This document shows positions 56,827 to 59,454 of a DNA stretch of 64,000 nucleotides, one piece after another. The notes beneath the pieces are model-generated. The model saw only the letters and a list, made by a program, of their open reading frames with translations, had not been told where the DNA came from and ran no database searches. Made by a program: the position numbers and the translations under genes. The stretch comes from Escherichia coli (GTDB taxonomy: Bacteria; Pseudomonadota; Gammaproteobacteria; Enterobacterales; Enterobacteriaceae): the NCBI RefSeq assembly GCF_013122565.1, contig NZ_CP053258.1. One strand, written 5' to 3'. How positions within the stretch are numbered: the stretch's first letter is position 1; each line of letters opens with the position of its first letter.

Positions 56827-59454
56827 ATGAGCGACCTTGCGAGAGAAATTACACCGGTCAACATTGAGGAAGAGCTGAAGAGCTCCTATCTGGATTATGC
56901 GATGTCGGTCATTGTTGGCCGTGCGCTGCCAGATGTCCGAGATGGCCTGAAGCCGGTACACCGTCGCGTACTTTACGCCATGAACGTACTAGGCAATGAC
57001 TGGAACAAAGCCTATAAAAAATCTGCCCGTGTCGTTGGTGACGTAATCGGTAAATACCATCCCCATGGTGACTCGGCGGTTTATGACACGATCGTCCGTA
57101 TGGCGCAGCCATTCTCGCTGCGTTACATGCTGGTAGACGGTCAGGGTAACTTCGGTTCCATCGACGGCGACTCTGCGGCGGCAATGCGTTATACGGAAAT
57201 CCGTCTGGCGAAAATTGCCCATGAACTGATGGCCGATCTCGAAAAAGAGACGGTCGATTTCGTTGATAACTATGACGGCACGGAAAAAATTCCCGACGTC
57301 ATGCCAACCAAAATTCCTAACCTGCTGGTGAACGGTTCTTCCGGTATCGCCGTAGGTATGGCAACCAACATCCCGCCGCACAACCTGACGGAAGTCATCA
57401 ACGGTTGTCTGGCGTATATCGATGATGAAGACATCAGCATTGAAGGGCTGATGGAACACATCCCGGGGCCGGACTTCCCGACGGCGGCAATCATTAACGG
57501 TCGTCGCGGTATTGAAGAAGCTTACCGTACCGGTCGCGGCAAGGTATATATCCGCGCCCGTGCTGAAGTGGAAGTTGACGCCAAAACCGGACGTGAAACC
57601 ATTATCGTCCACGAAATTCCGTATCAGGTAAACAAAGCGCGCCTGATCGAGAAGATTGCGGAACTGGTAAAAGAAAAACGCGTGGAAGGCATCAGCGCGC
57701 TGCGTGACGAGTCTGACAAAGACGGTATGCGCATCGTGATTGAAGTGAAACGCGATGCGGTCGGTGAAGTTGTGCTCAACAACCTCTACTCCCAGACCCA
57801 GTTGCAGGTTTCTTTCGGTATCAACATGGTGGCATTGCACCATGGTCAGCCAAAGATCATGAACCTGAAAGACATCATCGCGGCGTTTGTTCGTCACCGC
57901 CGTGAAGTGGTGACCCGTCGTACTATTTTCGAACTGCGTAAAGCTCGCGATCGTGCTCATATCCTTGAAGCATTAGCCGTGGCGCTGGCGAACATCGACC
58001 CGATCATCGAACTGATCCGTCATGCGCCGACGCCTGCAGAAGCGAAAACTGCGCTGGTTGCTAATCCGTGGCAGCTGGGTAACGTTGCCGCCATGCTCGA
58101 ACGTGCGGGCGACGATGCTGCGCGTCCGGAATGGCTGGAGCCAGAGTTCGGCGTGCGTGACGGTCTGTACTACCTGACCGAACAGCAAGCCCAGGCAATT
58201 CTGGATCTGCGTTTGCAGAAACTGACCGGCCTTGAGCACGAAAAACTGCTCGACGAATACAAAGAGCTGCTGGATCAGATCGCGGAACTGTTGCGTATTC
58301 TTGGTAGCGCCGATCGTCTGATGGAAGTGATCCGCGAAGAGCTGGAGCTGGTTCGTGAACAGTTCGGTGACAAACGTCGTACTGAAATCACCGCCAACAG
58401 CGCAGACATCAACCTGGAAGATCTGATCACCCAGGAAGATGTGGTCGTGACGCTCTCTCACCAGGGCTACGTTAAATATCAGCCGCTTTCTGAATACGAA
58501 GCGCAGCGTCGTGGCGGGAAAGGTAAATCTGCCGCACGTATTAAAGAAGAAGACTTTATCGACCGACTGCTGGTGGCGAACACGCACGATCATATCCTGT
58601 GCTTCTCCAGCCGTGGTCGCGTCTATTCGATGAAAGTTTATCAGTTGCCAGAAGCCACTCGTGGTGCGCGCGGTCGTCCGATCGTCAACCTGCTGCCGCT
58701 GGAGCAGGACGAACGTATCACCGCGATCTTGCCGGTGACCGAGTTTGAAGAAGGCGTGAAAGTCTTCATGGCGACCGCTAACGGTACCGTGAAGAAAACT
58801 GTCCTCACCGAATTCAACCGTCTGCGTACCGCCGGTAAAGTGGCGATCAAACTGGTTGAAGGCGATGAGTTGATCGGCGTTGACCTGACCAGTGGCGAAG
58901 ATGAAGTAATGCTGTTCTCCGCCGAAGGTAAAGTGGTGCGCTTTAAAGAGTCTTCTGTCCGTGCGATGGGCTGCAATACCACTGGTGTGCGCGGTATTCG
59001 CTTAGGCGAAGGCGATAAAGTCGTCTCTCTGATCGTGCCTCGTGGCGATGGCGCAATCCTCACCGCAACGCAAAACGGTTATGGTAAGCGTACCGCAGTG
59101 GCGGAATACCCAACCAAGTCGCGTGCGACGAAAGGGGTTATCTCCATCAAGGTTACCGAACGTAACGGTTTAGTGGTTGGCGCGGTGCAGGTAGATGACT
59201 GCGACCAGATCATGATGATCACCGATGCCGGTACGCTGGTACGTACTCGCGTTTCGGAAATCAGCATCGTGGGCCGTAACACCCAGGGCGTGATCCTCAT
59301 CCGTACTGCGGAAGATGAAAACGTAGTGGGTCTGCAACGTGTTGCTGAACCGGTTGACGAGGAAGATCTGGATACCATCGACGGCAGTGCCGCGGAAGGG
59401 GACGATGAAATCGCTCCGGAAGTGGACGTTGACGACGAGCCAGAAGAAGAATAA
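56827..59454 (+). CDS. gyrA: DNA gyrase subunit A
   Basis: 875 aa; active-site and QRDR context ...[17 protein letters not shown]...; acidic C-terminal tail. Confidence 0.98.

Follow-up and report, generated by a model that had tools for sequence, protein, structure and literature searches.

Gyrase subunit A and the quinolone anchors

The closest described counterpart of the gene considered here is GyrA of Escherichia coli K-12 (b2231, NP_416734.1), which is represented by the structures 6RKS/6RKU/6RKV/6RKW, 3NUH and 1AB4. [quoted passage not shown] In this established mechanism GyrA, acting together with GyrB, supplies the DNA breakage-reunion core in which Tyr122 cuts the DNA, and the keto-acid group of the quinolone chelates Mg2+. 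The waters coordinating this ion in turn form hydrogen bonds with the hydroxyl of Ser83 and the carboxylate of Asp87; both residues are on helix 4, close to where the DNA is cut, with the acidic anchor lying four positions downstream of the conserved serine. Such a bridge places the drug near Tyr122, within the gate of cleaved DNA, and leaves the enzyme trapped as a cleavage complex. Loss of either anchor, through S83L, D87N and similar substitutions, weakens drug-induced cleavage.

Two other groups of described proteins are relevant to the comparison. ParC, the A subunit of topoisomerase IV (TIGR01062), possesses a homologous breakage-reunion domain with an equivalent pair of a serine and an acidic residue on helix 4, which are numbered Ser80 and Glu84 in that protein. 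The resistant gyrA alleles, with S83L alone or accompanied by D87N/G/Y, share both gene and locus with the sequence described below, which differs from them at codons 83 and 87. This sequence is part of a stretch of E. coli DNA of 64,000 nucleotides, the whole of which is referred to here as the window.

Identity, codon phase and surroundings of gyrA

The coding sequence for DNA gyrase subunit A occupies positions 56827..59454 on the + strand of the window, as an open reading frame of 875 codons followed by a TAA stop. In profile comparison the NCBIfam equivalog for gyrA, TIGR01063 (cut-off 877), recovers it with 1309.7 bits, in a full-length match in which residues 8-840 span model positions 1-799 of 800, and NF004043 does so with 1258.7 bits, again above the threshold (902). 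As the equivalog score is well over its cut-off, a chance match is not at issue. Residues 535-841 match the solved chain 1zi0_A of the C-terminal domain, and this β-pinwheel domain bears the GyrA box, QRRGGKG, at residues 560-566 (58504..58524, + strand), a motif that marks gyrase as against the ParC subunit of topoisomerase IV. Arg121-Tyr122 (CGT TAT, 57187..57192, + strand) and Arg462 are also found; Tyr122 is the catalytic DNA-cleaving tyrosine of E. coli gyrase, and it is predicted to play that role in this protein.

The codon numbering, on which any statement about residues 83 and 87 depends, is fixed by several independent features. An in-frame TAG at 56824-56826 (+ strand) directly abuts the ATG at 56827, in the context ...ggtTAGATGagc..., and an alternative start further upstream is thereby excluded. 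The product aligns without gaps, residues 1-875 to 1-875, with the solved E. coli GyrA chain 6rks_A (PDB 6RKS), and does so equally with K-12 b2231, whose length and start it shares. Counted from this ATG as codon 1, the first base of codon 83 falls at 56827+246 = 57073 and that of codon 87 at 57085. Hence the one circumstance that the first-pass annotation had named as capable of overturning its reading, namely a mis-phased numbering from a different start codon that would bring other residues to positions 83 and 87, was checked on both the upstream stop and the two alignments and is given no probability at all.

The K-12 protein is identical at 874/875 residues, and the QRDR, Tyr122, the GyrA box and the flanking genes ubiG and yfaA are shared as well. 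At the DNA level the two gyrA genes are 98.36% identical, and the differences affect 43 codons, 42 of them synonymously and one non-synonymously; this preponderance of silent change points to a functional gene that is under strong purifying selection. The gene order yfaL-ubiG-gyrA-yfaA-yfaT-yfaS is that of K-12, and the window as a whole is collinear with K-12 positions 2,332,247-2,395,000 at 96.7-98.6% identity. These observations also bear on the proposal that the gene might be parC or some other paralogue. ParC models do match the N-terminal half of the protein, which is expected among paralogues. However, the score against parC_Gneg is 581.5 bits, under its cut-off of 628.9, and the parC models in general remain below their cut-offs, as against the score well above cut-off for TIGR01063. 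The presence of the GyrA box, the near-identity to GyrA, the K-12 gyrA synteny and the occurrence in the window of a single GyrA-family gene, with no second locus of the GyrA/ParC type, likewise leave us assigning no probability to a paralogue. The sequence data establish which gene this is, how its codons are numbered, what each of its residues is and how it compares with the wider population. It is almost certainly the chromosomal, single-copy gyrA of E. coli in its ancestral, quinolone-sensitive form. The 874/875 identity to the characterized E. coli GyrA further suggests that its product would combine with GyrB into an A2B2 enzyme that introduces negative supercoils.

Upstream of the gene an extended -10-like element, TGtTATAAT, was located by eye at 56774..56782 (+ strand), 45 nt 5' of the ATG. 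It is probably the gyrA promoter, as judged against the known promoter of E. coli gyrA; a simple promoter scan did not report the element because it has no good -35 hexamer. The ubiG-gyrA intergenic region of 146 nt shows a single base different from K-12, and TGtTATAAT is retained. A terminator-like hairpin is seen 20 nt past the gyrA stop (59474..59491, + strand), with AAGGGAGCTATCTCCCTT followed by GTTTGAATTG, as a consensus match in a region where the count of such hairpins is not above that of shuffled sequences. Three open reading frames run antisense within gyrA, at 56989-57960 (-, 323 aa), 57973-58593 (-, 206 aa) and 58641-59063 (-, 140 aa). The first of these overlaps the QRDR, and the annotation of K-12 places no gene on that strand; all three are most likely shadow frames of the gyrA reading frame. 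In the two flanking genes the mechanically called frames, ubiG at 55958-56728 (-) and yfaA at 59555-61291 (+), each have 16 extra codons ahead of the start given in the K-12 annotation, in which the lengths are 240 aa and 562 aa respectively. The family-model match of yfaA starts at residue 17, in agreement with the annotated start.

Wild-type QRDR and the single substitution at residue 678

Codons 83-87 (57073..57087, + strand), read directly against the codon table, are TCG GCG GTT TAT GAC and encode Ser-Ala-Val-Tyr-Asp. The first-pass annotation had claimed Ser83 and Asp87 and the absence of the common resistance substitutions, and this is what the sequence contains: codon 83 is TCG at 57073-57075 and not TTG, and codon 87 is GAC at 57085-57087 and not AAC, GGC or TAC, so that neither S83L nor any of D87N/G/Y is present. 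The comparison of codons 67-106 with a reference gyrA, which had been put forward as the check, was run against K-12 and returned an identical peptide. These codons (57025..57144, + strand) represent the QRDR, with the bounds 67-106 as given in the part of PMC9953508 that cites Yoshida 1990, and differ from K-12 only by silent changes at codons 85, 91 and 100. Codon comparison with K-12 over the window gyrA finds no S83L/W/A/V, no D87N/G/Y/H and no other QRDR substitution, and A51, A67, G81, D82, A84, Q106, A119 and A196 are all as in K-12; residues 51, 119 and 196 are further sites for which resistance changes have been reported. The same QRDR is also found in the baboon E. coli PapM-32-1, in E. 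whittamii, in Escherichia sp. E1V33 and in SCPM-O-B-8794. The original observation is exact in its location and its reading, and is textbook material that was already known.

The distribution of the two principal codon-83 states was surveyed with two 45-nt probes centered on codon 83, in which a mismatch at the center leaves no 28-mer seed intact. With the Ser83 (TCG) probe, 2,767/5,426 complete E. coli genomes are detected, i.e. about half, with 2,012 of them identical over all 45 nt, and the Leu83 (TTG) probe detects 2,295/5,426. The window itself falls into the Ser83 class. The other ~364 genomes presumably differ in the flanking sequence or in the codon itself. Wild type is thus the more frequent state, despite the bias of the collection to clinical isolates. 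Of the 5,431 gyrA matches in this collection (ecoli_genomes), one, with Leu83, comes from an entry classified as a plasmid; this may reflect a wrongly classified replicon, or else a resistant gyrA that was genuinely transferred.

The sole amino-acid difference from both K-12 and 6rks_A lies at codon 678 (58858..58860, + strand), where the window has GAA (Glu) and K-12 has GAC (Asp). Glu678 is present in 3/3 of the representatives of other Escherichia species for which the retrieved locus reaches codon 678, namely E. whittamii, Escherichia sp. E1V33 and SCPM-O-B-8794, and also in the baboon isolate PapM-32-1. This occurrence across other Escherichia indicates that Glu is ancestral and that the Asp678 of K-12 is derived. 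It could be supposed that the Glu at this position of the C-terminal domain lowers or slightly alters the response to quinolones and that the allele is not fully sensitive; were this true, "wild-type QRDR" would be an incomplete description of the drug sensitivity of the allele. We regard this as very improbable. The change is conservative, its Glu state is the ancestral one, and residue 678 lies in the DNA-wrapping domain, distant from the drug pocket, a position that also counts against such an effect.

Published observations can be found on both sides of this question. In favor of an effect, D678E is listed among the non-ResFinder substitutions seen in one strain after enrofloxacin exposure and is there called resistance-associated (PMC11721436), and resistant clones, ST405 and ST1193 among them, frequently carry it together with S83L/D87N (PMC10638923). 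The pairing with S83L tracks clones, and we attribute the co-occurrence to clonal background. The same study includes an ST38 isolate with D678E alone, for which its main text gives no phenotype that we could find. In a pan-genome study with phenotypes for fluoroquinolones, the allele in which D678E is the only change (gyrA-1) occurs in 152 susceptible genomes and in 1 resistant genome (PMC7067475), and the listing in PMC11721436 conflicts both with these allele counts and with the presence of Glu678 in other Escherichia. The protein encoded by gyrA-1, which is also that of PapM-32-1 (WP_001281251.1), is identical to the window protein; the gyrA DNA of PapM-32-1 is 98.55% identical to that of the window. 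The exact window protein is common, being found on at least 1000 contigs under the name of E. coli gyrase A. The state of residue 678 in other Escherichia, these allele counts and the clonal pattern of the pairing all argue that D678E marks lineages and does not confer resistance. With Glu678 ancestral and the Asp of K-12 derived, D678E is not to be scored as a resistance mutation.

Host lineage and expected drug response

Among the 5,426 complete E. coli genomes, the best identity to the window gyrA is 99.0%, and for two 24-kb blocks (window 8000-64000) the best identities are 96.9% and 98.4%. Other Escherichia species are farther, at 95.9-96.4% for gyrA and 85-92% for the flanks. When examined gene by gene, the distances of the window from K-12 and from PapM-32-1 are about the same as the distance between K-12 and PapM-32-1. 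A contig of the Logan collection (SRR11451224_125) matches over 5,887 bp at 100% identity. As judged from these comparisons, the host belongs to E. coli, broadly defined, and its lineage has no close relative among the complete genomes. The low best identities had raised the alternative of Shigella or of an Escherichia other than E. coli, which was rejected: E. whittamii, Escherichia sp. E1V33 and E. albertii are clearly farther away than E. coli, and the collinearity with K-12 is free of breaks of the kind caused by IS-type insertions. A separate observation concerns SCPM-O-B-8794 (NZ_JAATUR010000019.1, gyrA 635-3262), which is labelled E. coli; its gyrA is 95.9% identical to that of the window, below the value for E. 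whittamii, and its GyrA deviates in the C-terminal tail from residue 867 onwards, with no stop at codon 876. This isolate probably belongs to a different Escherichia species.

Outside gyrA, the only DNA in the window that is extra to K-12 is a segment of ~1.9 kb at 44866-46735. It encodes a LysR-family regulator (44619-45497, - strand) and a predicted MFS transporter of 396 aa (45649-46839, + strand), the latter matching generic MFS models only and below curated cut-offs. At this place K-12 has only the remnant of the yfaH pseudogene, whereas PapM-32-1 has both genes. Conversely, yfbN, yfbO and yfbP of K-12 (~2.5 kb, between nuoN and yfbM) are missing at 7013-7027, where the flanks meet within ~14 bp. 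As judged by its collinearity with K-12, the window retains what appear to be intact copies of the arnBCADTEF operon and pmrD (20900-28600), which function in L-Ara4N modification of lipid A and have relevance to polymyxin. The same holds for menFDHBCE, glpTQ/glpABC, nrdAB-yfaE and a yfaL autotransporter of full length (1250 aa). An Rfam scan of positions 1-64000 returned no family at gathering score, and a tRNA scan of the whole 64 kb found no tRNA gene.

The first-pass annotation had also predicted a quinolone-susceptible gyrase from this allele. For the GyrA subunit the prediction is supported, given that the QRDR is wild type and that the sole change, D678E, falls outside it. With both anchors and the rest of codons 67-106 intact, the subunit should be fully poisoned by fluoroquinolones, an expectation for the window enzyme that is drawn from its near-identity to the characterized GyrA. 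By synteny with K-12, gyrB, parC, parE, marR, acrR and soxR are absent from the 64-kb window, which contains no other quinolone-resistance determinant and no pentapeptide-repeat ORF. The first-pass annotation had named parC as needed for a full call, and this list has to be widened: with gyrB, parC, parE, the efflux regulators and plasmid-borne genes all lying outside the window, the call of susceptibility covers GyrA only and not the organism. It is therefore conceivable that the organism is fluoroquinolone-resistant anyway, through these chromosomal loci or through plasmid qnr, aac(6')-Ib-cr, qepA or oqxAB, none of which the window includes; this concerns the phenotype of the cell and not the identity of the gene, and we consider it unlikely. 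The lineage looks rarely sampled and non-clinical, and the inserted MFS transporter matches generic models only, under their cut-offs. Furthermore, a change at gyrA S83 is the first step in nearly all resistance of clinical relevance in E. coli, and high-level resistance without it is rare. A drug-sensitive enzyme would be the expectation that follows from the preferred reading of the gene as the ancestral gyrA allele, whereas the response of the cell would depend on the rest of the genome as well.

The analysis adds no new biology and makes no open question more testable; its use is that of routine genotype-to-phenotype annotation. What it describes is a strain with Ser83 and Asp87, which lacks the initial mutation on the way to nearly all fluoroquinolone resistance of clinical relevance in E. 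coli, in a lineage that is poorly represented among complete E. coli genomes.
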